A DNA stretch of 64,000 bases from Candidatus Omnitrophota bacterium (lineage in GTDB: Bacteria > Omnitrophota > Gorgyraeia > Gygaellales > Profunditerraquicolaceae): positions 1-64,000 of the forward strand of contig JBEKSD010000004.1 in assembly GCA_049517335.1 (NCBI GenBank), written 5' to 3'. Positions 21 through 36,700 of the stretch are shown here, piece by piece; the stretch's first letter is position 1, and each line of letters begins with the position of its first letter. Under the pieces are notes generated by a model, which ran no database searches, was not told the DNA's origin, and worked only from the letters and a program-made list of their open reading frames with translations. The position numbers were made by a program, and so were the translations under genes.

Positions 21-760
21 ATGAAACGCGAGGCCATTGAGAATATCGCTAAATGTATGCATATAGCTGACGGTAGGGCAGGGGTATGCGACTCCGGTTT
101 AAGCGAAATAGGCTATGAGGATACGGCAAATCTAGGCACACCCATTAACACTGATTTCTTTGATCCCGCGATAGTTGATAGGTATGAGTTCAGAGACAGG
201 AATAAAATAGGGAGAGACAAATTTATGATTTTACTTCCCCACCGCGTCAATCCTCTCAAAGGGCAACTTGATTTAATCCGCGCACTAAATTTATTAGAAG
301 ATAAAACTGACTACGTAATTGTGCTGATGGGGGGGGTGGATGATGAGGCCTATTTGGAGAAGATGCACGCTTTCTCAAAAGAAAATGGTTTAGCAGCTAA
401 TGTAATAGTGCTTCCTGAATTATCGCGGGAGGAAGTACGTTTGGCCTATGCTGCTTCTGACCTCGTGGCCTTACCCACTTATGATGAAGGCTTGTCTACG
501 GTCATACTTGAAGCTCAGTCGATGACCAGGCCCGTTATTGCCACCAATATAGGCGGCAATAGAGAGGCCTTGGTAGATGGTCAGACTGGTCTAATAGTTG
601 AAGCCGGAAATCCTGAAGAATTGGCCAGACAAATCCGTGGGTTAAGAAACGATAACGAAAGAAGAAATAGATTAGGACATAATGGCCGTAGATATGTCAT
701 GCGTTTTGATGTCAAGAATTTAATAAAGAGACACCAGCAGTTCTATTTGCGCGTGATTAA
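21..760 (+). other. Giant protein domain: GT4 (GT-B) glycosyltransferase, partial copy 1
   Basis: RVNPLKGQ, DEGLSTVILEA, ATNIGGNRE and GQTGL motifs typical of the GT4 C-terminal half. Confidence 0.85.
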
Positions 761-12700: not shown

Positions 12701-15700
12701 CCTTGATAGATTAGATGAACAAACAGAAATATATTGGAAAAATATTAATAAGCAATTAGCAATATTGTCCGGTGTACAGTCTCCTCTTGCGAGGGCTAGA
12801 CGCATGCTTTATGGCAAAATAAATGACATATATCCGGACAAGCTTTCTCTTAAGAGTCGTTTATTAGAAGAGCATTGGCTGGAAGCATATCGTCGTGCCT
12901 TTGACCATACCTCACTGGAAAAAAAGATTGGGAGAAAATTTAGATTTGACCGTATTTTCTATAGCGAATTCTGCGAAAGTCAGCTTTCAGAGAAAGGCTT
13001 ATTAAGAGGACTATTCAATAGTTTACCAGAACAAAATAGGGTTTTCTTTACAAAATGTTGCGTAGTGCTTTCCAGCCAATTAGCCAGCGCAGCTATGGCG
13101 CAAGATCCTTTTATAATCTTAGCCTACTGGCTAGACAATTTTGTGAATACTAGAAAAGTTCCTCCAGAATATGTTATCGCGGCAAACTTAGGGGTTAAAC
13201 TTTTAGCCAAGCAGTTAGGTTTAGAGTGGGGGTCTTCCGTAAAGAGTGACTGGAGAACAAATACTCCTGAGAATTGCTTTGATTTTGCCAATGAAGTTTT
13301 AAGGCATCCCGGAAGGGAAATCAGCGACGCCTTACGAGAAGTCTGTAATCACGAATTTAAGGAACCCGCTGAAGAATTGTTATTTCTCTCTAATTGTCTT
13401 ATCTCGGCACTCAAGGAAATATTGGACGAGCCCATAGACACTGCACTATTCAATAAGGTAGAACGAGAAATTTATGCAAGGAGGTTATATTTTAATTTAA
13501 AACAGGCCTTGGAAGTAATACTGGAAGAGTTTGCAGATAAAATTGCATATCTAAAGGCGATAGACAGGGATAATATAGAAATTGCATTTAGGAAGACATC
13601 CCTTTCCATCCACATTACCCGTGAATCAGAAAATCGTTGGCATGCTGACGTAGTTGAAGCTGTTTCTTCGTCCGTCGGCCATAGTCTAGAGGTAGCGGAC
13701 ATTAATACCCATGCCATGGTAGGAGGCGCTGCCAGGCCAACTGCACCCTTTGCCTGCCTTGCTATACCGCTTCTAATGTTTTTGTATCCGTATCTGGGTG
13801 ATAGCATAAGCGTATTCCTTATCCATCTCAAAGAGCTCATCGCGCCTCTGTTTGCTACAGGTACGCACTGGCTCTCGCATTGGCTCTTAGGTAGTATGCT
13901 CTTGCCCCTGTTAGGTGAGATTAATCCACCGTGGCCTGATGATTTAAGAGAGAGAGACGTTGATGACGTAAGAGAGAACTCCGACGAGAACTACACCTAT
14001 GAGTTCCCCTTCGTCTTTACGGCCAGTAACGGAGACAAATTAAAGATTAAGGTAGGTATAAGACAAGTTGGCAAAAAGACCGCAATCAAAATTTTTGTCG
14101 ATTACAGCAAAATAAAAATAAAAAAGTATTATTTTCCTCTGGTATTAGTATCCGTAGAAGGCCCTAAAAATATAGCTGGCCTCATCAAGAAAATGATATC
14201 ATTAGGGCTTTCCCAGATTATTCATGATGAGAATGGGCTTGCGCCGGAAGAACGGACGCGCCTTTCGCAGGAAGTTGAGGAGTTTATCCATACAAAAATA
14301 CCTCTTAGGCTTGCGCAAAGCATTTGTTTTATTCAGCACCTCAATGCGGCATTCCCATTTCTTGAATTTAAAGAAGAGAGGTTAGAAGAGATTATTCATT
14401 TCTTGCCAGTAATAGTCTATAAAGGAAACCCTACTTTTTACTTTGGGTCTATTTTAGAAGGTTTATCTTCTATTTTAAGGAAGATAATAGATACCGGCGA
14501 GTCTACTGATATTCTGGTTAAAAAAGCGGAGGAGATTAAGCCGAATAGCGGCATCTTCTTATGGCACACTGAGCTGGCGGACAGAGTAGAATCCGAAGAG
14601 AGGCTTCAGATTCCTACAGACCCATCGGCTAAAATCCCGCCAGAGAATATACCCGTGGGTTTCTATGTACCACTTGACCGTTTGGATACAACTAAGTTAA
14701 ATCCCGAAGATTTAGTCGGCGCTCAACCAGGTCTATTTTCTGTTTCTGAGAAAGCTCCTTGTACATATCAGCTTACTGCCATAGGATTGCCAAAGCCAAT
14801 TGTCTTAATTTCTCACAATTCCCCAACATTGCAAAGGGAAATTAGTAAGATTCTTCCCAACACCACAGTAAGTTTACCTCTTAATACTAATAGAATAAAT
14901 ATTGTATTTGAATCCGGTCTCGAAAGGAAAAAGACAATTATAATTATAACATTGGATAGCTTAGAAGATGCCGAGAGAGCGGTTAAGGTACTTAATACTA
15001 TTGCAAGAGGCGATTCCTTAGAGGCCATAGCGTTAGAAGCTAAACAGGTAGAGCAATCTAAGGTAGCATCGTCACAGAAAGCACTAGCAGAATCAACAGC
15101 TACCCCAAAAAATGAAGGCAGGTTTCTAGACGAAAAAGTCCTTCGCTCTTTCACTATGGCTGATCCAAGGCTAATATGCAGTGGAGTATTCGCAAGCCTA
15201 CAACATGTATTAGGAGAAAAAAGGTTGTATGCCCAAGCAGCAAATTTAGACAGGCGACAGGTAATCCTGCTTAGTTTTGGAGAAAGTAATGACCCTAAAT
15301 CAGATAAATTTAGAGCATTTTACCAGACCCAAGAAGGCGGATTAGGTTTTATATATAATGGCGTGGAGGTTTTCTTTAGTTCAATAATGGTAGTTATGTC
15401 CAGAGACGCCAAGACATATTTTTCTTGGCAACAGAGTTCTTTGCTTGGTTTAGTTCAAAATAAAGATAGCCATATGTTTATTCCTGTTGTCAGCCAGCAG
15501 CGCATGCAAGAGATTGCCGGAAATGAAAAGATTAGAAAGCTTCTGGAGAAGGCAGGGATTACTTTTACTACTCCCGAAGAGGTTGCGCATGTCCCTGATG
15601 CCGTTACTATCACCTGGCCGTGTACTCAAGAAGAGATGGTGTATAGAGAACTTTCAGATTCATACAGAAAGCGAGATGCTGACCCCTCTGAGAATGGTTT

Positions 15701-18700
15701 CCGCAGGACAGACAATAATGGAATGGAATTGGCAATTGGAGAATATTTTATGCGCTGGGAACCGGAAGGGGCTGTTTTGAAGGCTCCGAACTTCAAGAAA
15801 CCAGTGGAATTCCCTAAGAGCGTGCGACTTTTAGGTTGGGCATATGGCAGAGAAGAAACAGATGAAGACCCTAACTTTCAATGCTTGTATGCGGTTTATA
15901 TTGATACTGCGGGCAGTTATGTTCCTCCTGAGCACAATGGTTTGCTACGTTTTATAAACAATAAAGACTATTTAGCAAGTAGGGGTTCTTTTACTGAGTT
16001 AGCTTATGTACCTTTGCCTCAAGACCTCATTCAACAACAAGGCACTCCACCGGATTTAACCTCGGCTGATGAGCCGCTTGACAAAAAACAGGTAAGGCGC
16101 CTGTTTGATTATTTAGGCGATTTTATTCAAGAGGAAGTCACTCCTGAGATGACAAGGGAGATAGCAAAGATTTTGAACATAACGCTATTAAGCCATAACA
16201 TTGGTTCGCTACAGGAGAATGAAGAGTTGATTAATCAGGCGCTGGAAGGTTATAAAATTAAGAAGGTATATATTATGGGCCGTAAGGAATTATTCGGCCA
16301 GCAGTTAGGCACAGAGATACGCTCGGCCATACATCCGGATAAAAAAGAAATCATTGTGCTTATCCCTGAAGAGCATGATTATTTTGCCGAAGATAAACTT
16401 ATCATCATGCGGCTCTGCCATGAATTTAGTTCTTTGGCTTTTAAGACCAGCCACCAAGTAAATAGTGAAATTGAAGAACTACTCCTGGAAAATAAGCAAG
16501 GCAGGTTATCGCCACGCAGAAAATTAACCAAGCCGGCCAGGACGGAGTTAAAAAATAACCTTGCCGAAATTTACCAAGATAAAAAACTGCCTACGATTGA
16601 CTTTTGTGCCGCAGAAGGAGAGAGACTAAGCGCACTAGAATATGCTAAACTACTTAAAAAAGAGTTTGAGGCTTCCAAGGCGCGGATATGGAAGAGGTCT
16701 TCTCTAGCTACGATTAATCAGCAGATGAAAGACTATACTGAGCTTGTGGATAAGTTTGTGAAGAAGGTTTTTCAAGAGGCGCTGCGCCGTTATTCCAAGG
16801 CAAAAGAGTCAGTAGCGCTAGTAGCAACAGGCAGCTACGGACGCCGACAACTCATTTCCCTTTCAGATGTTGATATTAAATTCCTTATATCGGAAGAGCC
16901 GGAAAGAAAGCAAGATACCGCCAGGGAGATTAGGGAAGTAACTAATTTTCTGCAGGAAGCCCTATACAGTTTATTCAAAGACAAGCATTGTCGCCCCGAT
17001 ATTTCTACGCATTTTACTCTTACTGTGGTAGAAAATATTTTAGGAGTACAGCACCATCAAGATATAGACTATATAGAATTAGTCACCGGACTACTTGATT
17101 TACGCTTAGTTACAGGTGATAAACATATTTACGCGGCATTTCAAGATAAAATAAATGCTCTTTTAACAGAGCAAAAACCCAAATTACTTTCAGCTTTCAA
17201 AAAAGAGCTTACCTCAAGACGCGGAGTAGAAGATATAGCACTGAGCGCTAGGCCGGTGAATTTGAAGAAAGGGACCGGTAGCACTTTTGACTTTCAATTC
17301 CTGGGCTGGATAGAAAAGATTGGGAAGAGGAGAAGCTTAAGAGAGTGGGAAGGAAAAGAGACGCAGGAGGCATTTGAATTTATGCAGCTTTTGCAGGTTC
17401 AAATATTTCAGCTTATGCAGCAATGTCCTCAGGTAGCAGCTATCGCGCCTGATTTCTTAGCAGATAGAGAGTTTACTCCTGAACTCCAGAAGGCATTTGT
17501 TCGCTGGCTCGTAGTAGGATTAACCCCTTATTTAGATTTGAATGAACCGGCTTCAGTAAAAGAGCAATTGGAACATATCCGCCTGATGCAGCGGGTTTCA
17601 CATTACAGGCGAGTACTTGCGGAAACTGCGATTTCAGCCATGAACCGCACGCAGCTGCCTTTACAAGACCAGCCGCAGGCGAATCCGTTTGAAAGTGACC
17701 CAGCCAAGATTATGGAGCGGTTTGCGTCTGTTGCGGCCTCATATACTCTAGTTTGGATTCCAGAGTTAGAATTAATGAAACAGGCCTTACCTGTATTTAG
17801 AGCCGAGATGGAAAAAGCGCTTGCCGCTCGACCAGGAGAACGGGGTGTATTCTTTGCGCGCGTGAATAAGGCGCTCCTTGATATTCTGGAAGTGGACAAA
17901 GATATTTCAAGGGTGATGTGGCAGCTTCAGCGCTTAGGACTATTAGCTACCATTCTTCCTGGATGGCGGCGTGTTGACGGCGTAGTTAGTAAAGACCAAT
18001 GGCATATTTTTACAGTGGAAACACATATCCTTAAGGTGCTGGAAGCAGTTGAGAAATTAAGAACAGATGACCCGCGTGGGCGATTAGAGGATGCTATGTG
18101 TTGGGCAAGAGAACATAAGCATTTATCCACCCTGCGCCTGGCAGTTTTAACCCACGACTTAGGAAAACCAGGTTTACTTAATTTACCTGGAACTTCGCAT
18201 GAAAGGGTAGGTGCGCATCAAATCGTACCGCAGATATTGCAACGTTTGGGTATCCCTGAGAATAGCTTACGTTTTCGTTTGGTACGCTGGTTAGTGTTAA
18301 ACTCCGATTTACTTATACAATACCAGGATCGCGACCCTGATGATCCGGAGCACCTCTTGGCGCTTGAAGTCAACCGTTTAGGCCAGGATACGTTTGGCCA
18401 GAATCTCTTTACAGCTTTAAAAAATGAGCCGACGGAGTTTATTGAAGGGACTACCTATCTTCTGCCACTTTTGGAATTTGCCGACCATTCAGCCACTAAG
18501 CCAGATAGTCCACATGTTGATACAATCAGGAGGACATTAAACCATTATTCTCCTTGGCCAAAACTTGCCAGACAGGATTTTGATTTAGACCAGATGCAAG
18601 ATGAAGTCTGCAGCGGTATTAAGCCCGAGGTCTTAGCCGAAGTAAAAAGGTTGACCAAAAACAAATACGGCCGTCAGGCGAAAAAAGAAGTAGATTATTA

Positions 18701-21700
18701 CTTTAAACATGTGCCTGCGATAATTTGGTTAACCAGGCCGAAGAAAAAGATGGTCAGTTATATTTGCGAAGAGGTTATTTTAATGTTACGCTTGCGTAAT
18801 GAAAGTCTTTCAGCAGGAGTTATCATCCGGCCGCCTCAGAATATTTTAGAGGAGCCATGGGAGATTATTGTCTTGAACCCCAGGGATGAGCCCGGAGTGC
18901 TTGCGAAAATATCCGGCGTATTATCAGCATATGGTTTTGATATCCAGGTTGCCCAGGCTATCTCCGGTAATTCCGGAGCTGTAATTGACCGTTTCTTAGC
19001 CAGGCTTCCTGAGCCGATATTTATGGATCATTCTATGCCTGAGATTGAGCGCTTGGCCGTAACTATACAGCGGGCGCTGCAGATAGATATGCGGGCGGTC
19101 TTTAAAGATAGATGGGAACTGGGTGCCGCCAAGAGCGTAAAGCAGGTTTTCTCAGAGCGCGGCAAGGATTACCTGTTCCATAATCCCTGTAAAGTCCCCT
19201 TTGAGGTTAATTTTTCCGATGGGCCTGAGCCGACGGTAAGGATGGCCTTTAAGGGAAGCGATTTTGTAGGCTCACTCCATGTTATCTCGCGCATACTGGC
19301 TGAGAATTTTAATATTAATATCCAGTTCGCCAGCATTGATACCCACGGTTCAACAGCGGTTAATGTTCTTTATATTGAACAGATATCTGGTGGTAGAGCC
19401 GTAAGGCCTTCTCAGGAAACGCTGGCAGAGATTACGCGCGTATTGACCGATATCTTAAGCCGCAAGGATATTGATCTTGATGAAGAGGAACATACTCCAC
19501 AGGCACTAAATTCTTTTATCTCTCCTGTACTGTTCGCCGCATTTTTCTACGGCACAAAATCTACTTTCTTGGCTAATCTACTTATCCATAACCCTGCCTT
19601 ATGGGTAGCCGGCGGTATTGCTTTGTTGATTATTTTAACGATTATTATATCAAACCAGCTTAAAAAGGACGTTCCGACAAAACTGGGAGAGTTTATAACT
19701 GTGTCCATCGCAGGAATTATAGGTATCCTCGGAGCCCTAGGGTTCTTCATTGGTAGCTTATGTCGCGGTCTTAATGCTACACTAAGGTTTTTCTGGTTGA
19801 AAATTTCCCCATCGCGCTGGCCGCCACAGAAACTTCAGCTAAGCACCCCCACTTTATTACCTATTACTTGTCATGCAGGAGGCAATATAGTACATCAACT
19901 TCAGGAGTCTTTTGGTAATGCTTGGTTAGAGGTGCTGACTTTTGCGGGCATTCGTTCCCAGACAATCGTAGAATATTTAACGCCATTCAATGTAAATGGA
20001 GACCTATGTGCGGCACGTGCGGTTTATAGACATACTTTTATGCTTTCTAATGGCAGGCAAGTTGTTTTATTTGAAAAAGAGTTTGGTTTTGGCAATCCAA
20101 CATTGATGGATCTCTTTCTCCAAGGGGAGTGTAGACGCACTCAAAAGGCCTATAATGGTGGCCACAATAGCGTTGGCCCTAAATCCGCTGTGATATGGAT
20201 CGGGAATGAACCGAGGCTTTTTAACATGGCTGTTAGTGGGAGAGAATTGCAAGAGGCAGAGGTGGATAAGGACATCCTCGTTGCCGCAGGGCTAGGAAGG
20301 TCTTTAGGGTTTCTGCACAGGTATTACCACATTGCCCATGGCGATTTATATTTTATTGATAGTGACGGCAAGGTGCGGCTGAAAACAGAACATGTCTATC
20401 TTGGTGAAGATGTAGATGGATTTCCATGGATAAGATTCATTGATTTTAGGCCTTTGGCATTATTTAAGAGCAAGAATAAGGAACGCAAAAATATTACCTA
20501 TGTATTCTCTGGAGCAAGCCGTAGTGCATTTTTAATGGAATACGATAGAGCTATTAGCGGTATTTTTTCTTATTATCCTGCTCCCGGATGTTTTGGCGAC
20601 GTCGAACCGCAACATATCAAGATGTTTTTAGAATTGATTGAGCAAAAGAAATTCCGCGAGGTCACAGAAGCTAAAATATTAGTTTCGCAGGTTGAAGGCA
20701 TTCCGGTGAAGGTTTTTGTATTCGACCCCGAGATTAGCCGTGCTCCGCCGGTCTGGGAACGGCTTGTTCAAAGAAAAGATGCTTGTCTTGAAATTTACTT
20801 CACCACCGAAAGCAACTATCAGCGCCTAAGTCCCTATCTAGAAGAACTCTCCTATCATGGTCTGGTTGAAAACCGGCTTTTAAACCAACCCGGAGTAACC
20901 CCTCGATCTGCCCACCGGGGGGCTGTTTTAGCCGTACGTAAGAAATTCCCGCATACCGCGCCAGGATTAGAAGCGGCTGGTAAGCCAAACGTTCCCGCAG
21001 AATTTGTTACTGACAACTATTCAATTATAAGCGGCAATGGTTTTGTTACGGTGCAACAGGAAATACGCCGTTTCGATAGACGCTACATTCCCTTTGGCTG
21101 GTATTTTAAGAAAGGCGAAAGAGGAAGGGTTATTGTGCCGAAGAGGGTTTTTGGAAAGGCAGGGCGCTCATTTGTTGAAGTAAAAGTTCCGCAACAATCC
21201 GAAGAAACCTACTTAACCTTTTTCTTCGTACCCCACCCATTAAAAAATGATGCTGGGAAAAAACTTGAGCTGGTTGCACAATCCATATGGCTTAATTATC
21301 TTCAGCTTTTTATGTGGAACAAACATAGAGATGAAAAAGCATTCAGAATGGGTTTTAAGATTATCTGGAGGAATTCCGACGGAAAAGATATTCTTATACC
21401 GAAGCTCACCGTTGAAGAACAGAGAGGAGAATTAAAAGTTACTACTGGGGCCAAAAGCAATTCCTTCAGCCAATTTGCAGTTCTCTTTAGTATTATCTGT
21501 CTTGGTCTTGCCTTTACCGCGCCGCTGTGGTTGCCGGTACTAAAGCTTATTCTTGCTGGCATAGGCACGGCCAACGTTGCCCTTGCCCCACCGGTTTCTC
21601 TCAAGCTCCTCGTCGCAGGCGCAATGCTTGGGGCAATATCCACCCATAAGTCCGCATGCCGTGCCTCCAGACCGGCGGATGTTTCCCTGCCGAGGATTAT

Positions 21701-24700
21701 TATTATCGGAGCGGGCATCGCCGGTTCATACGCTGCATCATATGCAGCTTCTCAGGGATTTGAGGTAGTTGTATTAGAAAGAGCTAGCTTAGAGGAATCT
21801 CGGCACCCGTTATTTGGCAGAAAATGTGCAGAAGGGATATGGCTGGAGAAAATGCAAAAAGCTGGTTTGAGTTGTGATATCCATGCTTTACCTGCCTGGG
21901 TTGACTACGTAACCGAAAGGCTTCTTATCGGGCGACTGGACTCAAGTAGCGAAATTCAGACCGCTGAGTTTGATACAAAACCGTACCTTTATCTAAACAG
22001 GCAAGCCTTTGAGCAGGATAATTTAAATAAGGCGAAAAAGATGGGCGCGGTCTTGCGCTATGGTCAGCATGTGCAATATTTGAAACAGGTAGTTGATGCT
22101 AACCCCGGAGCCATCATCATCCTTGCCACAGGAGTAAGCAGGCATCTGGTAAAAGAGATGCTAAAGCCGGAAAGGCAAGCACAATACAGCGCAGAGAATA
22201 ATTATGTGATTGAGGCGCAGTACACTTTCCGTGGCGTAGATTTAACGCGCTTAGGCCATTTTAAAGCGGTGTTCTTTGCTGATGATCCCCGGGTGGCATA
22301 TTTCCATGTTTTTCCCAAAGGAACTCTTCGAGACTGCGAGGTTAATGTAGGTGTTATGTGCGCGAAATACCATATCAAAGAGATATTTACCTTATTAGAT
22401 AATTTTATTGGGGCAGCCAACCGGCATTTCGGTGGTATTTTTGAGGGTGCGCAAAAAATCAAGGAGAGGACGTTTACCAAGCCGAATACTAGCGGCAGGC
22501 CCATAGTATTAGAAGATATGGACCGTCAGCAGTTTGCCAATGTATTACCTGTTGGTGATGCCGCCAAGCATGTTGGTTCATTGAGCGGCGGAGGAATCGG
22601 GTATGCGCTCTTTGCTGCAAAAATGGCCATAGATACAATACGAAATAACCCAGATGTTCCTGCAGAAGCGATTCAGGAAAGATACTTCCAGGCAATTGAA
22701 GAACTCACACAGGACTTAGAGGAAGATGCAGCAAAAAGAGAATCATTTTTTCCAAGAGACCCAACTATTAAAAAGAAATTCCTCGATCGTTTTATGGCCC
22801 TTGCTACTGCGGGCATTGAGTCCAGAAAGGTTTCTCTTTCATTTAGCAGGCTTACGGATATGGTAGTAGGATTTAATCCGCAACTGGCGGCCCTAAAGCC
22901 CTGTTTCTTAAATGCCATATCGGAAGTGAAGGCTTTATTTGAAGAAGCGGATATCCCTTACGCCGCAATTGGCGGTGTGGCTGCCAAAATAATGGGGTCT
23001 CCAAGAGAATTGAGTCAGGATGTGGATTTTATGACAACCACTGACGGCCTTGATCGTTTTATCGCAATGGCAGGGAAATATGGCTTGTCACTCTCGCACT
23101 TTGCTTGGCAGGGATATGGAGCGAGAGCCGATGTGCTAGAATTCTATATTAGCAGAGCAAAGATACACATCGTTGGTAATATGGAAATCAATGATGCCGC
23201 CGGGAATACCCATCATTTTTATCCTGACACAGAGATGATGAGTAGGGCTCTTGAGAGAGAATGGATAGGAGAGATTGATAAAATTAAAGTATTGTCTGCA
23301 GAAGATCAGTTCATTCTCAAAGCCCTTTGGCAAAGAAGCACAGACGTAGACAAACATGATATTGACGATGCAGTTGCCGTCTTCCAATATAACAATAAGA
23401 ATTGGGATAGCGAATATTTTATAAGAAGAATTAGGGCTGTTGGAGGAGAGCTTGCTTTGGCCAGGATAGCGAATTTCTTCCGTCAACACATTGACTCAAG
23501 TGAGAGAGCATTCAATCTGATTTTAGAAAAAAATGCTGCAACTGAAAAACGAACCTCCAACCCGGCGGAAATTGATCTCGACACAGAATACGAACTCAGG
23601 TGGCAGGGAGGCGAGGCGGATATTTATCAGCATAAAAAGAAGCCTACATTAATTAAAGTATTTCATCTTAAGGGAGTATCAGCAGCGCATATTAGAGAAT
23701 ATGTTAGGATTGTCACAAAACTCATTGGTTTTGGGCTTCCAATTATACCGATGGAGACAGTCCAATTAAAAAGTGGTGTATGGGCCGTAAAGATGCCTCT
23801 GATAGAAGGTAAGACGTTGGATGTAAGCACCAAAAAAGATACTAAGGATATTAAATCTTCGAAGGCCACTGCAAGGAGAATTCAGCAAGAGATCGACAAA
23901 TTAACATTATCTTGGACAGGAATGGAATTGGCTGATTGGCACTATGTCTACTTGATGTTCGACTTTTTCCTTATACCTGTAGAAGCATTTCCATGGGCAA
24001 ACTATATGGTTCAGGCCGATAGCACGGTAATTTGTATTGACCCTATTTCTATAAGGTTGCTAATGAAACAAATGGCTGCCTCCTCGCCCGCCACCCCGAG
24101 AACAAAACCCACTCGTAGGACCAAGGGTGATTCCTTCAGTCAATTTGCAGTTATCCTTGGTATTATCTGTCTTGGTCTTGCTTTGACCGCGCCACTCTGG
24201 TTTTCAGAGCTAAAGTTGGTCCTCGCTGGCATCGGTACGGCAATTACTGCTTGCGCACCGCCAACTTCCCTCAATCTCCTCACCGCAGGCGCAATGCTAG
24301 GGACGATAGTGGAAAGTTCCAATCCCGTAGGCGATGAAGGCCGCGCAAAATCTACCTGCTTCTCGTCCGCTTGCAGTAAGCCACGCCGAAGGGCCGCTAC
24401 TCCATCCTTAGGTATTAGCGCAGTTTTGCAAAATATTACCCGAAGAATGCAAGACGGGGACTTAAAACAGTATCGCCTTCCCATACCGGATTGTATTGCT
24501 AATCATGAGCCGTACTCCGACCCCCCTCTTCCATTAAGGGAATTTTTAAGAAGCGGTGCGGTAAATAATTTCTTTAGGCTATTCCCAGAATTAAGGCAAA
24601 GGATATCTGATAAGCGTAAATTTAATCGTCTCCTGCAAGATTTATATACTTTTGCTAACCGACAAGCTAAGAGCGCATATGGAGATTTCCGTCATTATTG

Positions 24701-27700
24701 CCATACTGAACAAAAAGAAGCCGCAGCTTTAATGTGCGCAGGATTTAAGAGGCTAGGTTACCCCTCTACTACTCTTTGCACACCTTCACTTGAAAGCTTA
24801 AATGACTGGTGGCCTTCCGCTGGTGGTATACACTATGCTATCGTCGTAGACATTAAAGGAATAAAGTTATTCGTGGATATCAGTTTTCCGTTTATCGCCA
24901 GATTTGAAAGTGTCAATCATGCATTAGGATTAGTAGTGATGCCGCAGGAATTATTAGAACACGATACACAGTTACGCCAGCTTTATCAGGAAACAGAACC
25001 AGTCGTTACTAGTGCGCCTAGTAAGTTCTTAGACGACCCAGATTCTGTCACAGAGCTTGCGGTAGCGGCTAATCATCCTGAAGAAATCAGAGATGTTATT
25101 AAACACATCGCGTCATCACCTCAGAAGTTAAGACATTTGAACGGGGTTACGCCAGAATATGGGGAGCAGCTCATAATGAAAGTAGCGCAGGGAAGGACAC
25201 ACGTCTATACCTTCAGTATTCAAGGCGCAAAAGTTATTGGTTTGGTGGTGACTCAAGAAGCGACAGGGCACCAATGGGATATTTCTATGTTTTATCTGGA
25301 TTGCCGGTATGTGGGAAGAGGAATCAGCAAAATTATGTTGAGCTCGGTACTGAGTGACTTAAAAATAAGGGTAAAAAATATCTCATGTGTAGGATTGACT
25401 CCCGGATTCGCTCAGGCGATAGAAGATAGGCCACTATTAGATTTCTTCGAGCGCGAAGGGTTTTCTCGTGACAGACATTTAAAGGATTTGAGACAAGTCC
25501 GCGCCTCCAACCTGACTAAATACTGCTTAACTGGTGGTTCCATCGTGCTGGGTGTTATCATTCTCAGCCTTGCCTTAACTGCGTCCTGGTGGCTACCAGC
25601 GTTAAAGCTCGCCCTCACAGGATCTGAGGCGGATTTTGCTTTTTCATCCGCCTTACCTATATTAGGGCTCGGGAAAGGAATAGGTCTATATTTGTTGTTG
25701 GGCATGTGCGCGCAGCCAAGAGGTGTTTCGACTTCAGAACTGCACCTACAAGCTGAAAAGGTAATAACTGAGCCGCCGAGGCAGATAAAAGAGCGGCTTT
25801 ACAAGAAATTAGATTTAGCCAGTAGGCTGGTGGATGCAGGTTTTCCTAGTCGCGCTAGACGCTTACTCATCGCTGTTACGGCTGATTGTAAAAAGATGAT
25901 TGAGGCAGCCAAATCCAAGAGCCGCTTGGCGTCTGTAGCTGAACTGGCAAAGTTAGCTGATGAAATTCTGGCAAAAGTAGAAGATATAGTCGATGAAGCG
26001 GGAATAGAGATGCCTGAAGGGGCGGATGAAACTCAGGAGAAAGAAGTTTCAGCCGGAAATTCTGCTTTGTCTGATGAGAGAGTGGCTTTACTCAGGCAGC
26101 TCGGAGAGAGTGAGTCTTCTGTAGCCATGATAACGGAGCGGATAGACAAGCATAACTATGATGCTGCCATCGGCATATACTTGCTTTATCCAAATAATTT
26201 CAATTTGAATTGTCTTAAGGAGGCCTGCCGTAAGGACCTGAGTGTTACATTAGAGTTATTGTCTGCCCTTGAGAATCGTAAAGAATTCGAACGGGAATTA
26301 CCAAGGGAAGGCTCTATCGCTAAAATAGAAGACCTTGAGCACAAGCTGAGAAGGGCAGGGATAGGTGTGGTGGCTAACCAACGTGCCAAAGCCAGCCCAA
26401 GGACACTCTTGGCCATAGTGAGGCTTAAAGCATTTTATGTGCACAACTACTTGGATATTCCCAAAGGCGAGTATGAAAAAAGCTCTTATCCTAAGGACGC
26501 AGAATTATTCCACGCATCATGGAATAATGGTAGAGAAAAGATTTTCAGTTTTCACCACAAAGAGACCGAGGTAAGGTTTAGCTTTACAAGCACTAAAGCA
26601 TTGATTAAGAAAAGGCCGTATCTGGCCTGTAGGCTGGGAGAAGATAACCGCCTGGTTTTAAAGGCCAGAGAATTAAACGCTGAAAAAGAAACTACATATT
26701 GGTTGATTTGTGACGAAGCGCCCTATCTTAGGGAGATAGAAGCCTCTCCCCGTTTATTCATAAGATGGCTGGTAAAGGAGAGAAAATATAAAGATCCTCA
26801 AGTCGTCCGTTTACTGGCTTCACTTCCTTATTCAAAAAGACCTAGATACGCACTTAAAGGAGAACGCCATACCCACGCATGTTGGGCTCAAGGGAATAAA
26901 ATCATGCAGATAACAAATGATATACCGGATCAAACAAGGAGGGCTGAATATACCCTTTTGACAGCTTCTGAAGTACAACAGAGAATACCTGTTGTTAAAG
27001 ATGAACGCCTGCAGGAAGAACAGTTGGTCTTGATGGCTGAAACCAGACATACGTTTGGTTTTTACTTTTTTACAGATGTGGGTAATCATATTAATTTTAT
27101 CGGTCGCCTGATTAAAGCAACAGGAGAGATGCAAAGGGATCACCATGCGAAGTTAGGACCTGTGGCAGAAATTCTGGAATTCATAAAAAGAGGAGTGTTT
27201 GATAATCCCGGTCAACCGCCGATGACTCCCGAAAGCTTTCCCTTTGTTTTTAACAGAGATGGCTTTGTATATTTAGGTAGTTTTGTCTTGAGAAAAGGAG
27301 GCAAACCCCATAATATTTACCTTTACCATGGTAAACAAATAAAGAAGGGGACAGCGGTAGAAATAAGACGTGTCTTCTCGCGAAAAGACTCTGCAGGATC
27401 CCGGGGGCAGTGGCTTCTTGAAACTCAACCGCAAGGGGGGGGTGTCTATCGTTTCTACTTTTTTAAGTACGGGATACGAGGACAGCATCTCGCTGTCGTA
27501 GGTAGGTGGGTGGCAGAGCTAAAGGCCAACGGACAGCATAATCTATCGTCCGCCGCCCCACGAGCACCTGAAGTAGGTAGGTCTATTGTAATAGGAAACA
27601 CTCATCCAGGAGTAACCGCATTTATCCTGAAGAAGCTAAATTTAAGAGGCGATGAGAAGATATGCGACATCGGATCAAACAGGGGAGACTTTTGCCTTGC

Positions 27701-30700
27701 TGCTGCTGAGGTTTATCCGGCCACGCAAATAACTGGTATTGAGCTAGAGAGGGAGTCTTTTGAAGAAAGCTTAAGGTGTCAGGAAGAAGCAGGGGTTGCC
27801 AATGTTGAGTTTATAAACTGTGATGCCTTAAGTGAGGAGATAGATTATTCTCAGTTTGACGTAATCTATATGTACTTTCCTATTACTTGTGATTTAGGGT
27901 TCTACCATAGTTTGGCTAAGAGATTAGCATCGCAGATGAAGCCGGGAGCGCGCTTCGTCTGCTTTAGGGTTCAGAAGTGTAGCGGGGAAGAAATGCGCCG
28001 TATAAAGAATTACCTAAAGGGCAGCCTTACAAAACTAGTGTATCAGAGAAAGTTTAGTTGTGATTCGTTTGTACTTCCTAAGGTAGGGGCGTCATGGAGA
28101 TTCTGCTCACCCCATATGGGGGAAGTGTATACAAAGCTGGCTGAGTTGGCTTTACACAAAGAACCCGCGTTTGCACCGGAGACACCCCTTAACCGCGGCA
28201 TGTGCCCGGATAAACCTGACGCCGCGCCAAAAGGTACCGTCTCCTCTCCCGCCACCCCAAGAACAAAACCCACTCGTAGGACTAAGGGCGATTCCTTCAG
28301 CCAATTTGCAGTTATCCTTGGTATTATCTGTTTCAGCCTTGCCTTGACCGCGCCCTGGTGGTTGCCAGCGCTAAAGCTTATTCTCGCTGGCATAGGTACG
28401 GCCATCGCTGTTCTTGCCCCACCGGTTTCTTTCAAGCTCCTCGCCGCAGGCGCAATGATGGGGACGATGGTTGAGAATAGTAATTCCGCTGGCAGCTTCA
28501 AGACAGATCTGAAAAAAGGAGAACAATTTAAAGTCCCTGGGCACAATGTCTGGATTACGTTTTTAGGCAAAGTAACCCTACAAGACGAGGATACTCTTGA
28601 GTTTTACGCACCCGAATACATCATCGCATACGGCACTGAAAAAAATTACATAGGAAGAGGAACAAGGCCTTTTGGGAAGTCTGTAAGAGTAGGATGGCCA
28701 ATGTTATGTTATGTCCCAGATTATGCGCCAAAAATAAAAAAATCGTTTGTAATGACCGTAGAAGATATTGATGAGGCCGCAGAGACAGTAAGTATAATTT
28801 TTGAAGGAGCGTATGAGTCAGAACCGTGCCTGCGATCTGATGAGACGGATGAGAATAAGGCAGGGGTATGGGGGGTTCCGGCAGGAAGGGTAGATTTGGA
28901 ACCCAACCTAAAAAAACTGGATTCTGATGATGAAACAGAACAGCAAAGCGCGATGAAGGAGATTCTCTCCGTTGGAGAATGGATAGTGCCTCGTTTACAA
29001 GAGGAAACACGTAAGACAGAAGAGGCTTTAAAGGAGGAGATAGGAGGTAAGGCAAGGGTTTATAAAATAGAACAATTAACTAAATTCAGGGCCTCGCTTC
29101 TTAAATTGTTGCGTTGCTTTGCCATGCAAACCTGTATTATGCAGTATCTCCTTGAGAAGAAGCGCGACGATATCATCAACGCTATTTTGGAAAACATTCT
29201 AAGCGTGCTCAGGCATAAACTAAGCGCGGACTTATGGAGTTTCTTCTTAAGCATCGGTGTGTCGAAAACAATCGAAGGGAGAGATTATATACTCTTTGAT
29301 GTTGATTGCAAGTCCCAGACCAAACTCGCTGATATTTTTGATGCGATGGATAAACATCTATATCACAAGCGGCTCTATCTCGGAGCTGCACCACTTCTTA
29401 CGCCGTCAGATTTCCGCAAGATTAAACTTGAGCTTTCTGGATGTAGAGATGAGGTACAGAATCAATTACTTGGTATGGTCTTGGGGCATATGGATAAGCC
29501 AGATGATGGGAGACTTGAATGTAATATGGGTTTCCTCGGGAAAGACTGGCCGGTTACCGTAGGAAAAGAATTCAGGGAAGCTGCTGGCTGCTGGTTAATC
29601 AGAGTTGACACAGGGCATCCTGCATACGGCACAGTTTATTATGAAGTTTCTGCGAAGAAAACATTACGCAGATTTAAAGAAGTCCAATCCGCCCCGTCGC
29701 CCGCCACTACTGCGCTACCGAATAAGGACACAAAGGAGAGTCACCCTCAACATGCTCGGGTGATTACACAACTTTTTGGGACAGCCTGCTTTGGTCTGCT
29801 AAGCCTCGTGTTTAAGCGTGATACAAGAGTCATAAAAGGGTTCTTAAGAGTGGCTCACGAATCTTATATAGAAAAAATAGATTATCTTAGTAATTTAGTT
29901 ATCCGCGGTCCGCCTTTAGGATTAGGGTATATTTTACTCATCCCTGCTCTTCCGTTTATACTCTTCCTCGCTTTTATCCTGCCCATCGCTACTGCAGGAG
30001 AACTAATTCAATGGCATATTCCTGATAATGGGCAAGGTCTTTCCGAGTTCGTCAGGAATTCAATCGTTATCCACCATGAAAATGCACATTTAAAAGGCGA
30101 AGGAGAACTCTTTGCCCTCAAAGCCCAAGCCGAAGATTTCCAGAAAATACCTACGCCGCAAACCTTAGAAAGTTGCCCTACAAGCACCGTATCTGCAGCA
30201 AGGATTTTCGTCAGCGTCTTCACAAAAACATTGATTGTAACCGCTTTTATCGTAGCCGGTATTTATTTATGCTTACCGGATATCTCACTGTGGGAATATT
30301 TTGGTTCTCCGGCACTGATATGGCCAATAACCGCTCTGTTAAGTGTCACTAAGTTAAGGGCCTTAATCAGTTTTCTTATTTTCATACCCGCAGGAGAAAT
30401 CTTAGGCCAGTATATTAATATTAAGCTGGCTAACCCCGGCGAGAAGTCGTTTAGGCTAAATTTTGTCTTACGGATGTTCCTGGCTACCCTATTACTTTTT
30501 GGATGGTTTTGGTCATTGACTTACCTATTATGGGTTGATTCTTTGCCACCTTATTTAATCGGCCTTGCCGACCAGGTGAACACTGCTTTTATTTCAGTTT
30601 TTATCATCTTTCTCCTGCACAGGCAATTTAAAAATCTCTTCCAAAATGTTGGCGATGAGATTCGCACGATGTTGCCGGAATTGAGGCAGGCAGTTGCTAT

Positions 30701-33700
30701 TTTAATGCTAGCGTGGGCCTTGGCATTAGGGATTATATTTTCAATACCTTGCAGTATGGAAACAAAAAGCATTATTGTGGCTATCCTGCAACCATTCTCC
30801 GCTATTACTATGTCCTATCTAGCGAACAGGAGATCTGATAGAGGCGGGCAAATAGAATTGAGGGAGTGGGCAAAACCAGTATTAGTTTTCACTCTTGTCT
30901 TTAATTATCTTTTCTTTGTGGTCGGCACCATGTGGCTTCTAAATATTCCCCGCCTTCGTATTCCTATGCTCCTCACAGGCGTATTTTTCTATGTTGCGGT
31001 AGTTTTATTGGGGTTTAGAAAATCCGTTCCTATGCCGGCAGATGCTTTGCCACTTCTCCAGAATTGCCTTACTATCGCTTGCCTTGATAACTATGCAAGA
31101 GGGCCAAAGAATATATTTAGTGACAGAAGCGATATTAATCAGAGGTTGCGCGAGGTTTTTAGATACGCCGGGCCTTCTATAGAAAATTTTGCCGGGCATA
31201 ACAACCTGATAATCAATGAACCGCAATTGCGCTTTATAAACTGGTATTCAAGTTTCATGGGCGAGGATAGACCTATATTTGATATATTGTATTTACAGGG
31301 ATTATACCGCCTTATACTAAGGTCAGTGAATTTTAATTACAATTTTCAAAAGAATTTTGCTGCCTTATCGATGGCAACTCAACTCCTTTTTCTCAATAAG
31401 GCCAATGAATCCTTAGGCATCATTGAAGGTGAAATTACAGCAGCATATTTGCGTAATCCGGCCAATAGAGGAAAATTAGCTTATCTTTATGAGACAATCG
31501 GTGTAGTCTATATGGTTTCCTACGACGAAGAAATACCCAGCATGATGGATGAAGTTTATATCAATTCTTGCCTTGCCTCAGCAGGCCTGAATCTCTACCG
31601 GTTAACACATATGACGATTGATGAAGTTGAAGGTATTCTTAATATTAACCCTTCAAGGATAACTTCGCGGCGGATATCATACCAGGATGAGTCGGAGGAG
31701 AGAGCCTACTACAGGAGGCTACAGGCAGATATAGAGGCCGCATGCGGTATTACCCCGGGAAAACAATCTGCTGCACGAGCAGATTTGGATGTAATGGTAT
31801 CTTCCCGAAGAAGAACCGAATGGGGACGTAACAGAATGCTCTCCGTTCCGATGGAGGATATCGACCATGCCCTGATAGATTTATTTAGAAACAATGAAGG
31901 CAAATTCATCAGAGATACTTTGAGTAAAAAGGTGGGCCACGAGATTGCCTTAAAACATATTGATAATCATATAGTTATAGAATTAAGGAACGAAGCTGCC
32001 CGTAGCGGCATATATAAAGTGTACACCGGAGTAAGCGAGGGGGATAGCGGTCAATTCAAACCATGCGCTTTTGGCTTGGCGGTTGCAAAATGCGATTTTT
32101 TAAATAGGGCCGTAGAAAATGAGTTTAATACAGTAAATCATTTTCGTCAGATTTGCCGTTATGTAATGCAGCCCTACTGTTGCGATAGGGTTTCTATTTC
32201 TGTCGCGGGAATAAATACTGAATTAGCGGTATTTTCCATGGAGTGGAAAGAGGGATTTGAAGAGGTTAATTTTGTTTCAAGGCGGTTGGCTCGAGACAGG
32301 CCTGAAGATTTCGGGGATTTGGTGCAACCGGCAGAAAGTGGCGCAGGAGTTGTTCTATCCGCCTACAATCCAGCACGGGGATTGACAACACTTGTGCCAC
32401 TGGATAATGAACAGACCGGCAGGAATATCAAAGAAGAGATAGTAAAGATTATCACACTCTGTTTTGACCCCGAGAAAGGCGAGAGATTAGAAGACTCCTG
32501 TTTTAATGCCGGAGATTTTGTCTACAATCCCGATACAAAAGAAGTTTCCCTTATAAGCTGCAGGGGGATTCGGGCCATGAATCAAGAAGGAATGTTTGAA
32601 TATACCAAAGAACAGGTCAATGTATATGATTTTATATTTTGGTTGTTATCAACCAAAACGATCTCTCAAGGAATTTGTTGGTTGCCTCCGGGCCACTGGG
32701 GCGATTACGAAGAGATTATCTTTGAACCTCAAGATGTTTTTAATGGAATTAAGAAAGCACTAATAGAGAAATATGGGCCAAGGGAAGGTATCAGGAAGCT
32801 GGTGGTATGGTTTAAGTTTTATAACGAGGTAACTAAAGACTCTTTGGCTCACTTATTAAAGGATGCGGAGCCGCCCGCTGACCCTGCCGCTTGCAACCCA
32901 GCCGGAGTTGCGCGCACGACGAGCTATGGCCAACGCTACTATGAATTGCTTAAAGATGCACGTTGGTCTAGTCAGGTTCGGGCCTGGTTCATTAAGGTAT
33001 TCGTTACTCCATTTATGGAACCGATTGATTTTATGCGTAAGCCAGGAGGATTTGCACGGTTCATGGCTGCTCATAATGATATCTTGGGTAAGTCATCCTT
33101 GCATAAGGCAGCGCAAGTGTGGTTTAGGCTTCTGAGAGTTGCCCTGCGGTTTAAAAACCCGTTTATCAAATGGGGGATTTGGGGTGTTGGTTATATCCCT
33201 GCAGTAATCTCACATTCATTATACAACCTTGGCCTTCGTCCTCAAGGAGCAGCGGTGGGAGTGGCGAGGAAGAATAATCGAGGAAAGCCGATTCAGCCAA
33301 GGCGAGACCAAGAGTTAGAAGCTCTTGTTGAGTCGATTATGGCAAGTGGACAGCAAGAACAAAAGATTTCTGGTGGGATTGAGATAAATATGGTTACCGG
33401 TCCAAATAAGAAAAGATTTGTGCCCGCAGAAGGGCATACTGCTTCACCGTCGGTCACGCTCTTTCGTGATCGTATTGCAAGAGGAGAAATCTCTGAACTT
33501 GTAGATTTGTGTGGCGAAGAGGAAGTTCAGATTCTTCTGGCTAAGTTAATTGATTCAGCTGATTTTATAGTTGAAGTACCTGATACCCCAAAACATGAAG
33601 CAATCATAGATACTGTATTAAGATTAAAAGCAAAGATTGATCTAATCCAGATGATTAGTATTGCTATGGCGATGGAAGCAGTGGTCAATCACCTCAAGGG

Positions 33701-36700
33701 AGAAAGAAAAGATTATGCACCATTACTCGGATACCTTAATGAGTACCTTATTAACAGTCATACGCGCAACAAACGTTTGGCGCAGATGTACGGTAGTATT
33801 CCAGCTATTAGCAGCGCTACTCAGATACAAAGGTTGGAATTGTGGGGAGTAAAAAGTGGCTACCATGCGGATGTAATTCGGGTAGAGGTGAAACTGGTTG
33901 ACCAGCGCACGCTCCGTTTTGCGGTCAACGTTAGCAGGGATTTACGTGATGCAGTAGGTGAACTGCAAAGGGCCTTTGATTCATTAAAAGCTAAATTTGC
34001 CCAAAATTCTACCTATATTATGGAACCCTTCACTTTGGGCATCGGCAACGTATCTTCATGGCGAGGCGAGGAGTCAGTGCCGCTAATGGTAAGCGAATGG
34101 CTTGATGGATTTGACGAACTGCATCTGATGGAGACAACCGGTTCCCGTATACGTGTACGGTATGGCCAGGATGAATCAAAGGACGCTCTGCCTGAGCCTG
34201 AAAGCGACCAGGTCTGGCAAACCATGACAAGAATTAGGACTCTATATTCCGAGCTGACTACCGAGAAAGGCACTGCATTACAAGCACACGTCATCGCAGG
34301 GGACTTCGTTGGGAAAAAGAATGCAAAGGGCGGGTGGGAAGTAATGGTAGTTTGGACGCAAGATAATATTCGCAAGCAATATGCGCGGGAAGAAATTGTC
34401 TTAAATGCCTTGCTGCAGGGTGAAGTGGACTTTCTGTCTAGTTATATTTTTTGTCCAGGCGCAATATTGTGGGAGCGTTTTGATTTGGCCATTCCAGCAT
34501 TTGTGGCAGGTTTTGTTGAGGCAGGAGGAAGAAAGGAGAATGCCTTAGAAATACTGCGGCTGGTTTATAAAGAAACCCTACCAAGGATATTAAAGAGTTC
34601 CGAATCACACCCTGTGGTTATACGTTTACAAGAAGCCTATGGAGAGGAAATTTTAGTTAGGTTGAGGAAACTCCGGCGTGCCATAGGGAAGTTCTTAGGA
34701 GAAGAAGATGCCGAGCCTAGAAAACAAGAAGTATCTGACGAGGAATCCACTGATAGGCCATCGTTGGTGCAAAATGTAGAACTCGAAGATATTATTGGAG
34801 CCCATCCATTTAAAGTGCAGGCGGTGGTTGGTCCGGATAAAACTCCTCTCTACGGAGAAGATGGAACTTTTCTTTCTAATAAAGGACCTACCATAGGAAC
34901 ACTTGAGCAATTACGAGGCTTTCCTTATCAAAAGTTAATTGCCGACTTAAAAAGAGATTGTAATATCAGCGAAGAAATGCTTTTGTTTATTTTAAGAAAG
35001 AGCCGTAATATTCGTGGCGTTATGGTTCCTACAACGTTGGAAAAAACTATTTTACCTTATCTCGATGCTATTATCAAACTTAAAAAAGCCTTACTTACTG
35101 CCAGAGTTCTTGATGGCGAAGAAATCATTCAAGCAGTAATGCTACATTTAGCCGGAGCAGATTCTTCTTACCAAAACTTGCTACGTTATATAAATCATAT
35201 CCTTTCCAACCAAGGACAAAACCCCAGGTTTGCTGCTATTCTTTCTTCGGAAGATAAAGTAAAGAATGTGCAGGAAATTGAGAGCCTTGAACTATGGTTT
35301 GTCAAAGAAGGCTCTATTACCGAGGTTGTTGCAGTTGAAGTGCAATTACGCGATATTGCCGGCAGGCAATCAAAGGTTAGATTTGTAGTCAATGTTCCCC
35401 TCGACCGCACAAAGTGCGTTGAATGTCTGAGGCATGCTTACTCTCGGCTACATACCTACTATCAGCGTAATCCCAGTTTTGTTATGGAACCTTTTGCTTT
35501 AGGCACAGAAGAGGTACCGCTACTTGTCGGAGAATGGGTGGAGAATAGTGATGAGTTACATTTATATCATGAAACTGGCGCAAAGCAATTTCATGTCTGG
35601 GCAGGGCAGGAGCAGAGAAAAGATGTAATACGCTCGGTTGAAGATTCGCGGGAAATTTGGAAACAGATTATTCAGGCTAGGGTTATGTATTCGCAGCTCT
35701 TACCTGAAATGGGAATCCTACCCTGCTTATTGTTTGTTAACCGGGGGGATTATGTGGTCTATGACGATATGCAAGGCAGTCCCCATGTCGTTTTAATTTG
35801 GGATGGCAGTTTGAGTTTATATAAAGGTATCTATGAAGATATCAAGGTTTTTAACCCCGTAGATATTGTAATAAATATGCTTTACATGTTTGACCGAGAT
35901 TCTGATAGCGGGAAGGAATATCTTATCTGTTTTGATGAGCCTGATTTGGCTATTCAGATTTTGGAAGAAACCTTCCCGCTCTGTCAACCCTATCCTGAGC
36001 TAGCCAAGAGCTTACTCCAAATGTTATTTATCACGGCTTACACTGAGGGTTTTCCAAGTTTAATTGAAATGCTTAAACCAGAAGAATCTCTTGGGAGACT
36101 TTTAGATTCGAGCGAACAACCAAAGCTATATGCCGCAGCAGTAAAGGCTTATGAGGCACTGGGTAGATATTTGAAAGGAAAAGAAACAGGCTTGGGTGGG
36201 ACCGGGATTTATTCGCAGGAAGAAATAAAGCAGATGATTGAAGAAGACAGAAGAGCGGGTAGGATTGAAGCGCCTTCAGCGCAACTTAAGCGGAAACTCT
36301 CGTTTGCGAATTTCCTAGCCAGCCCCAACATTATCTACCTGCGCTATATAAAAGCGCGCGGCCTGATTAACGCCCCGCCGAAAGTCCGTGGTTACCAAAT
36401 CATTAACTCCGAACGAATCCGCTTTGGTGCCTGGCTTTCTGATAACGGCGTTCTTTACCTTGAAAGACCCTACCTTCCCCAGAACCTCACCCTGCTTATC
36501 TCCCACGAACGCATAGAAAAAGTAACTCAAGACCACGCGCTAGCCCAGCGTTTAGCGCCCCTGATTCAGCTGCTATCAGCTAACCCGCCAACAGACACAT
36601 ATCAAATGGTGCAAGTCCCCGGGACCAGGATTATTATTTATTCATCCCGAGATATTCCCCTGTCAGATGACTATACCTTGATGTTTGTTAATCTAATTAC

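Follow-up and report, generated by a model that had tools for sequence, protein, structure and literature searches.

The origin of bacterial genes that run to tens of thousands of codons, and the arrangement of polypeptides of that size in the cell, are open questions. We consider them here for a stretch of 64,000 nt from a Candidatus Omnitrophota genome (assembly GCA_049517335.1, contig JBEKSD010000004.1, positions 1 to 64,000; the window). A single open reading frame (ORF), open from the first bases of the window, encodes a protein of at least 14,264 amino acids (aa); the 5′ end of the gene may fall outside the window. This one ORF encodes many enzyme domains together with exactly four in-frame copies of a hydrophobic cassette of ~82 aa, named c1 to c4 (Table 1). 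The copies are homologous and the blocks of protein between them are not. Our reading, which we hold to be probable, is that the copies are paralogous and serve as helical-hairpin staples, tethering to the membrane the cytoplasmic enzyme blocks of a giant protein of the Omnitrophota type.

Four homologous cassettes under purifying selection

A DNA profile made from the four copies found these four only on both strands of the window (E 8e-79 to 1e-42), and a protein profile run against all six frames returned the same four plus one noise match (independent E-value 2.6). Pairwise BLASTP with 200-aa fragments gave 79.7% identity over 74 aa for c2 and c4 (E 2.7e-36), 67.9% over 56 aa for c1 and c2 (E 1.1e-19), 61.8% over 68 aa for c1 and c4 (E 1.8e-19), 44.7% over 47 aa for c3 and c4 (E 4.9e-9) and, for the weakest pair, c2 and c3, 36.2% over 47 aa (E 6.2e-5). 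Similarity of this order is far beyond chance. A first-pass annotation made from the sequence alone had called four copies of a hydrophobic cassette, and the profile searches and BLASTP bear it out; its statement that the first 90 nt of c2 and c4 (24081-24170 and 28242-28331) differ at five positions, all synonymous, is exact (94% identity, 30 residues identical).

Each cassette has a polar flank, strongly basic in c2 and c4, followed by a hydrophobic helix of 22-23 residues. A turn of four residues (x-x-L-K) leads to a second hydrophobic stretch, ~32 residues long, which Pro-Pro interrupts in three copies (c1, c2, c4) and which closes with an invariant G-x-x-x-G. Fifteen columns are invariant across the four copies, including a W, the L-K-L turn and the G-x-x-x-G. 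The most divergent copy is c3, with an indel and with charged residues within the second hydrophobic stretch, and a basic N-flank is common to c2 and c4 alone. Cassette G+C is 0.50-0.54 and third-position G+C (GC3) is 0.46-0.55, against 0.431 and 0.397 for the ORF (GC3 standard deviation 0.069 in 246-nt windows), an excess that would fit either GC-biased gene conversion or the choice of codons for membrane segments. Between 20.5 and 29.5 kb neither promoter-like sites (13 found, 14.1 ± 3.6 expected) nor terminator-like sites (10 found, 8.6 ± 2.9 expected) are enriched. An antisense ORF of 175 codons overlaps c4; most likely it is no gene and results from the higher G+C at this place (0.54 against 0.43).

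The encoded peptide is under selection. Over the first 30 codons of c2 and c4 there are five synonymous differences (sd=5) and no nonsynonymous ones (nd=0), at S=23 synonymous and N=67 nonsynonymous sites; under neutrality the probability that all five changes are synonymous is ~0.001. The ratio of nonsynonymous to synonymous substitution rates (dN/dS, Nei-Gojobori, 76 codons) is 0.31 for c2-c4 and 0.45 for c1-c2; for c1-c4 it is 0.91, inflated because c1 is not alignable in the N-flank. Purifying selection on the cassette at the protein level, as proposed in the first-pass annotation, is supported by these values.

Cargo blocks and membrane topology

The first-pass annotation had described the DNA between the cassettes as unrelated cargo sets, carrying a flavin adenine dinucleotide (FAD) reductase, a nucleotidyltransferase (NTase) and a kinase in block 1, a transglutaminase-like and a GNAT domain in block 2, and an unassigned region followed by a methyltransferase in block 3. 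The blocks indeed have no mutual similarity at E<=1e-4 (BLASTP). The labels fared unevenly, with the reductase (at family level) and the methyltransferase standing, the NTase weak, and the others leads only.

The block 1 reductase spans the NCBIfam profile TIGR02032, geranylgeranyl reductase family (positions 3-297 of 297, E 6e-31), and has the FAD Rossmann motif; the profile match makes the label solid at the level of family. Its 108.2 bits fall below the curated cut-off of 158.8, so that it is a divergent relative of the geranylgeranyl reductase family and not a certified member. It also matches a digeranylgeranylglycerophospholipid reductase structure (PDB 3oz2, E 1.3e-4, residues 18-376). 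Apart from the score, it differs from geranylgeranyl reductases in its setting, inside a giant protein and immediately after a predicted membrane hairpin. For the NTase-like region the profile matches are weak, and the kinase-like region, with no Pfam, NCBIfam or PDB match, is a lead only. So is the assignment of block 2, which resembles clusters named ‘GNAT family N-acetyltransferase’ (Atlas 0.90), ~340-aa proteins with PF01841 (Transglut_core) and PF00583. Block 2 has no PDB match and no Pfam or NCBIfam match of note, the weak Pfam matches being Acetyltransf_10 (E 0.041) and Acetyltransf_2 (E 0.2), and an AlphaFold model of c2, block 2 and c3 (550 aa, without alignment) has a mean predicted local distance difference test (pLDDT) score of 41, unusable for fold assignment. 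The methyltransferase label of block 3 is solid, with Methyltransf_31 above cut-off, PDB N-methyltransferases at 5e-5 and a generic PADLOC ‘mad2’ match. GC and GC3 of the cargo equal the gene background, hence there is no sign of recent import. After block 4 comes a dense hydrophobic domain of about ten segments, with no Pfam or NCBIfam match, which may be a transporter-like or insertase-like core.

Table 1. Features of the giant gene (positions in the window; residues numbered in the giant protein)
Feature	Position (nt)	Strand	Residues and remarks
Giant ORF	3..42797	+	frame open at window 5′ end; ATG at nt 21
GT1 modules (two)	198-2080	+	aa 11-252, 451-694; mutual duplicates, 43-53% identical
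RNHCP			aa 900-984
Pkinase domain			aa 1178-1337
Second repeat family	5949-6038, 7977-8066	+	aa 1960-2017, 2633-2693
Cassette c1	21411-21656	+	aa 7137-7218; nhmmer E 5.5e-71, hmmsearch 1.6e-42; N-flank unlike c2/c4
Block 1 part 1, geranylgeranyl-reductase-family flavoenzyme module	21696..22949	+	TIGR02032, PDB 3oz2; Rossmann motif starts ~17 aa after c1
Block 1 part 2, nucleotidyltransferase-like region	22902..23444	+	DUF2204 1.3e-4; NTP_transf_5 1.6e-3, below cut-off
Block 1 part 3, small putative kinase-like domain	23451..24080	+	Atlas 0.78-0.83 to Pkinase/RIO/APH/Kdo clusters
Cassette c2	24081-24326	+	aa 8027-8108; nhmmer 7.8e-74; N-flank basic, rich in Thr/Pro/Arg/Lys, common to c4
Block 2, Transglut-core-like + GNAT-like unit (lead)	24327..25502	+	Atlas 0.90
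Cassette c3	25503-25730	+	~aa 8492-8570; nhmmer 1.2e-42, hmmsearch 5.3e-26
Block 3 part 1	25731..27647	+	~640 aa; no significant match to Pfam, PDB or NCBIfam
Block 3 part 2, class I methyltransferase domain dependent on S-adenosylmethionine (SAM)	27648..27965	+	Methyltransf_31 4.4e-11
Cassette c4	28242-28487	+	aa 9414-9495; nhmmer 8.2e-79; second half nearer c1
Antisense ORF over c4	28043-28570	-	175 codons
Block 4	28488..29894	+	~470 aa; no family match (Pfam, NCBIfam)
Multi-helix hydrophobic domain	~29895-31030	+	aa 9965-10342
Internal duplication, ~230 aa	33570-35720	+	aa 11190-11418 and 11673-11899; 31-37% identity
MTS-type methyltransferase			~aa 12230-12330
Diverged tandem copies, unit ~135-165 aa	39186-40620	+	aa 13062-13541; protein 33-48%, DNA stretches 71-78% identical
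FHA domain	~40380	+	near C-terminus
Fic/DOC domain	41300-41650	+	near C-terminus

The highest Kyte-Doolittle means over 19 aa are 1.45, 1.56 and 0.97 in blocks 1, 2 and 3, against 2.06-2.28 in the cassettes, and hydropathy finds no hydrophobic segment of transmembrane (TM) grade in these three blocks. The side on which the chain leaves one cassette is therefore the side on which it enters the next. Given a common compartment between cassettes and one topology for homologous cassettes, the membrane crossings of each cassette would be even in number and all blocks would lie on the same side. The 20 aa of the N-flank contain 3-6 lysines and arginines taken together, the turn has 1 and the 20 aa of the C-flank have 2-4. 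Under the positive-inside rule basic flanks lie on the inside, and the charge pattern of the cassette fits an N-in/C-in arrangement. The cofactors of the blocks (FAD/NAD(P)H, a nucleoside triphosphate or ATP, acetyl-CoA or SAM) are cytoplasmic, and the cofactor-dependent blocks presumably all stand on that one side, in the cytoplasm. Characterised relatives of the geranylgeranyl-reductase-like module of block 1 act, by their family names, on membrane lipids or quinones.

We therefore picture the four copies as paralogues of one membrane-anchor module of ~82 aa, each of which, as a helical hairpin, would have its entry into and its exit from the membrane on one side and act as a staple that tethers the enzyme blocks to the membrane. 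To give the copies, either the anchor alone would have been duplicated or cargo would have been inserted between anchors; the copies would since have been held by purifying selection and may have swapped short tracts by gene conversion.

Several points weigh against the staples. The two-helix form given in the first-pass annotation would follow from the topology argument, and a low-confidence AlphaFold model of the cassette (four-row alignment, pLDDT 61) draws three helical segments of 19-22 residues, which would give an odd topology if all of them spanned. As we read the sequence, the second and third segments, after the Pro-Pro break, have 14-16 hydrophobic residues each and would thus be too short to span the membrane singly. 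The even-crossing argument presumes one topology for all copies, and c3 is divergent, with a charged second stretch. A polar, basic, Thr/Pro-rich flank of 16 residues is identical in c2 and c4 despite four synonymous changes (proportion of nonsynonymous differences, pN, 0; of synonymous differences, pS, 0.29); such constraint exceeds the needs of a spacer or a mere anchor and hints at an added role. Neither a SecA-DEAD-like domain nor a peptidase domain is seen in the window part of the gene (Pfam; no SecA family at E<=0.01). A two-chain complex prediction for c2 and c4, aimed at packing of one hairpin on another and made without controls, scored 0.00 and is counted neither way.

Origin of the copies and competing explanations

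By the sequence searches made, the cassette is without detectable homologue elsewhere. An exhaustive HMMER search of its profile against 1.84 billion representative proteins gave one match, an identical fragment of this gene (1,397 aa, on a 4,362-nt contig), and a word-indexed search of proteins of 145-2000 aa confirmed 1 of 1631 candidates, the same fragment. None of 91 pattern matches in GTDB species genomes was confirmed. A local search of the profile against P0003 (a 6,297-aa protein of a Candidatus Omnitrophota metagenome-assembled genome, MAG), P0004 and the six frames of L001 (the P0003 locus) found none.

The cargo has one relative of weight. The region aa 7130-9960, searched against proteins of 5500-17500 aa, matched 1 of 1787 candidates, which is P0003; against proteins of 30-5499 aa it matched 2 of 7999 scored candidates, its own fragment and a weak GGDEF protein (E 1.8e-4). 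In genomes, 1 of 142 pattern matches to the reductase module was confirmed, on P0003's own contig. P0003 and the window have only the reductase module in common (39% identity over 408 aa). In P0003 the module is the last of the protein and a single TM helix, not homologous to the cassette, stands immediately before it. The N-terminal boundary of the homology falls at a membrane anchor in both genes (in the window, ~17 residues after c1), and the C-terminal boundary falls inside block 1, ~380 residues before c2, so that the unit that moved was the domain and not the inter-cassette block.

P0003 has a hydrophobic cassette pair of its own, ~317 aa apart (L001 3446-3598 and 4397-4549; aa 3509-3559 and 3826-3876), with 84% identity over 51 aa, 136/153 identical nt, 6.5 synonymous and 10.5 nonsynonymous differences and, judged by eye, a long identical central run. 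The window gene has a second in-frame family of short repeats (Table 1), 46% identical over 61 aa, with a core of 65/90 identical nt and one 68-nt stretch at 87%; its second copy comes after a TM helix at aa 2635-2653. These pairs hint that repeated anchor-type cassettes are common in such giant genes. A second long open frame at L001 11649-21218 (+), of >3,190 codons, starts at the end of the P0003 gene and runs off the locus; the P0003 MAG would, from this frame, have giant genes in tandem.

Since homologous cassettes surround non-homologous blocks, cassette or cargo was copied or inserted independently at least three times, and historical modular assembly follows by logic. Exchange among the copies themselves is a separate matter. 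In the 78 nt where all four are in register, five sites group c1 with c2 and c3 with c4, two group c1 with c4 and c2 with c3, and none groups c1 with c3 and c2 with c4. In the segment of the loop and second hydrophobic stretch pS is 0.75 for c1-c2 and 0.28 for c1-c4 (Fisher P 0.007, uncorrected). In the block table the 5′ end of c4 is near-identical to c2, after which c4 comes nearer to c1, and in the cassette core c4 equals c1 at 24 sites against 15 for c2. A max-chi-square mosaic test on the full cassettes of c1, c2 and c4 gave 25.6, a value reached by 0/10,000 permutations; this signal arises because the c1 N-flank is not alignable. On the alignable core the value is 4.18, reached by 1716/5000 permutations and not significant, and we accordingly do not claim recombination as demonstrated. 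The sequences are suggestive of old gene conversion or crossover between copies. Values of pS between copies run from 0.12 to 0.75, which makes the copies old, with no recent exchange.

The first-pass annotation went further, holding that the cassettes provide homology for recombinational insertion, deletion or shuffling of cargo. Of this the past exchange between copies keeps some suggestive evidence, and the present-day process is not supported. If the cassettes were joints at which cargo is currently gained, lost and swapped by homologous recombination, the enzyme array would vary at the level of the population, and we think this unlikely. Several observations would suit it: non-homologous blocks are flanked by homologous cassettes, segments of the cassette back differing groupings, c4 with its c2-like 5′ part and more c1-like 3′ part has the pattern expected from a deletion by crossover between direct repeats, the raised GC3 is compatible with GC-biased conversion, and the reductase module occurs also in another giant protein in a different context. 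However, the longest exact runs common to copies are 30, 23 and 22 nt, about the minimal length for RecA-dependent exchange in Escherichia coli (23-27 bp); the synonymous divergence and the core mosaic test speak as given above; the common reductase module stops well short of c2, not at a cassette; and cargo composition is that of the gene. The only other cassette-bearing sequence found is the identical 1,397-aa fragment, and no variant arrangement was found.

Short dispersed repeats of ~250 nt, always in frame and with sharp similarity boundaries, might also be in-frame mobile or selfish DNA inserted into the gene, like Rickettsia palindromic elements or miniature inverted-repeat transposable elements. 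We rejected this candidate as very improbable: no terminal inverted repeats are common to the copies (weak pairs number 3, 1, 0 and 0 across the four regions and are unrelated), there are no dispersed copies beyond this gene in the window (both strands, all frames), in the representative proteins bar the window's own fragment, or among the GTDB pattern matches, and selection acts on the encoded peptide. That the repeats are artefacts of assembly, with chimeric joins where sequence is repeated, is a worry that the first-pass annotation had itself named; it draws on the general risk of metagenome assembly only, and is scarcely credible here. At 63-82% DNA identity and with no identical run longer than 30 bases the copies are too divergent to mislead an assembler, the frame is open across 42.8 kb, and the separate 4,362-nt contig encodes the identical fragment, which starts within c3, takes in block 3 and c4 and reaches into block 4. 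A further alternative takes the cassette with its basic Thr/Pro-rich flank as a processing or regulatory mark, for cleavage of the chain into separate membrane-anchored enzymes, each beginning at a cassette, or as a phosphorylation or docking site for the protein's own kinase and FHA domains. The constraint on the flank beyond what an anchor needs would agree with it, as would the Pkinase and FHA domains of the same protein, and cleavage of giant proteins is raised as a possibility in the available text of a preprint (bioRxiv 10.1101/2023.11.21.568195). Yet the flank is in two of the four copies only and Pfam finds no peptidase domain in the ORF. Its basic residues are demanded by the positive-inside rule as well, and we consider such a mark quite unlikely.

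The giant gene among known systems

Besides the cassettes and cargo, Pfam finds in the giant protein two GT1 domains, RNHCP, Pkinase, several methyltransferases, a DUF294 NTase, ACT, an FAD Rossmann motif, FHA and Fic. About 15 hydrophobic clusters (19-aa Kyte-Doolittle mean >1.6; hydropathy scan only) lie between enzyme domains from aa 2528 to 14020. The two GT1 modules stand at the N-terminus. The ~230-aa duplication is near the MTS-type methyltransferase, and the diverged tandem copies are 5′ of a lone, highly hydrophobic helix at aa 13647. TRF, which reports two trivial arrays only in the ORF, misses these tandem copies. PADLOC gives no system-specific match, only generic domains (kinase, PD-T4-6 and mad6; methyltransferase, mad2; Fic, SoFic), and Rfam has 0 matches in the window.

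The genes 3′ of the giant ORF are ordinary chromosomal ones and encode PilZ, a sugar-type ABC importer (SBP_bac_1 and two permeases), MFS_2, a GH2-like protein, ROK and LacI, and also class II ribonucleotide reductase, phosphoglycerate mutase and MnmG. West-Roberts and colleagues reportedly described neighbours of the sugar ABC, MFS and GH2 type for giant-gene loci. No type II secretion genes are found in the 64 kb.

Omnitrophota proteins that measure 10,000 to 147,155 aa, contain many TM helices and combine multiple enzymes are described in the available parts of two texts (West-Roberts et al. 2023, bioRxiv 10.1101/2023.11.21.568195; Nielsen & Lui 2026, 10.64898/2026.06.07.730766), the former likewise giving numerous TM helices for the giant proteins. 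The gene fits this class by length, TM pattern, domain mix and neighbours. It is like the ‘Archaeovorins’ of 2023 and the ‘multi-enzyme’ and ‘TM-only’ classes of 2026 in its ORF of >10,000 aa, its scattered hydrophobic helices, its unrelated enzyme domains (GT1, methyltransferase, GNAT-like, kinase) and its adjoining sugar-uptake genes, and the sole homologue of any part of the region comes from a Candidatus Omnitrophota MAG. In the sections available of the 2026 text, methyltransferase, GNAT and GT1 content is listed for long proteins, 422 of 916 of them are ‘TM-only’ and read as anchored in the inner membrane with cytoplasmic domains, and the insertion route is stated to be unvalidated (10.64898/2026.06.07.730766).

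Unlike the published giants, the gene has four anchors that are mutually paralogous and under measurable purifying selection, and its window part shows no SecA-DEAD-like domain. Divergent SecA DEAD-like domains are common on giant proteins of all subtypes, according to the available part of the 2023 preprint (10.1101/2023.11.21.568195); because the 5′ end of the gene may lie beyond the window, their absence does not exclude membership of the class. The word ‘recombination’ is absent from the available portions of both texts (West-Roberts et al. 2023; Nielsen & Lui 2026), and ‘hairpin’, ‘gene conversion’ and ‘shuffling’ from that of the latter. As far as the literature on giant proteins was searched, no description of paralogous anchor cassettes was found, and they amount to one detail of a known class. 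The extracellular giant proteins of Apilactobacillus are, in the available part of their description, without predicted TM domains.

Other long bacterial proteins offer partial parallels. MARTX-type and polymorphic toxins are long polypeptides with an array of unrelated enzymatic modules, the repertoire of which varies between relatives, and the chemistries typical of effectors include Fic, kinase, acetyltransferase and papain-like domains. The array of unrelated modules on one chain is the likeness; the modules here are set apart by what would be membrane hairpins and not by cleavable linkers, with no sign of export, and glycine-rich repeats, an autoprocessing cysteine protease domain and a secretion signal were not found in the giant ORF (Pfam, four chunks, E<=0.01). 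In modular polyketide and non-ribosomal peptide synthases repeated segments can undergo gene conversion and can serve as joints for module exchange. The giant gene is like them in having repeated similar segments; their repeats are catalytic domains of >1 kb with long identical tracts, against an anchor of 250 nt in which no identical run exceeds 30 bases and for which the signs of exchange are weak.

The locus is at present a clear example inside a described class and not a new system. It supplies a concrete, testable unit for the question of how such genes arise, namely a paralogous anchor, presumably a hairpin, between non-homologous enzyme blocks. A wider and doubtful idea is that hydrophobic hairpin cassettes are the ‘punctuation’ at which Omnitrophota giant genes gain, lose and exchange enzyme units, while the anchors keep the units at the membrane's cytoplasmic side; it would be a bacterial analogue of exon shuffling, and the second repeat family and the P0003 pair hint at its generality. 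If variants with junctions inside cassettes existed, they would show a mechanism of module exchange. If the hairpin topology is true, a chain of >14,000 residues would be laid along the inner membrane with its cofactor-dependent enzymes all in the cytoplasm, and giant proteins of this class would then be less likely to have a role outside the cell.

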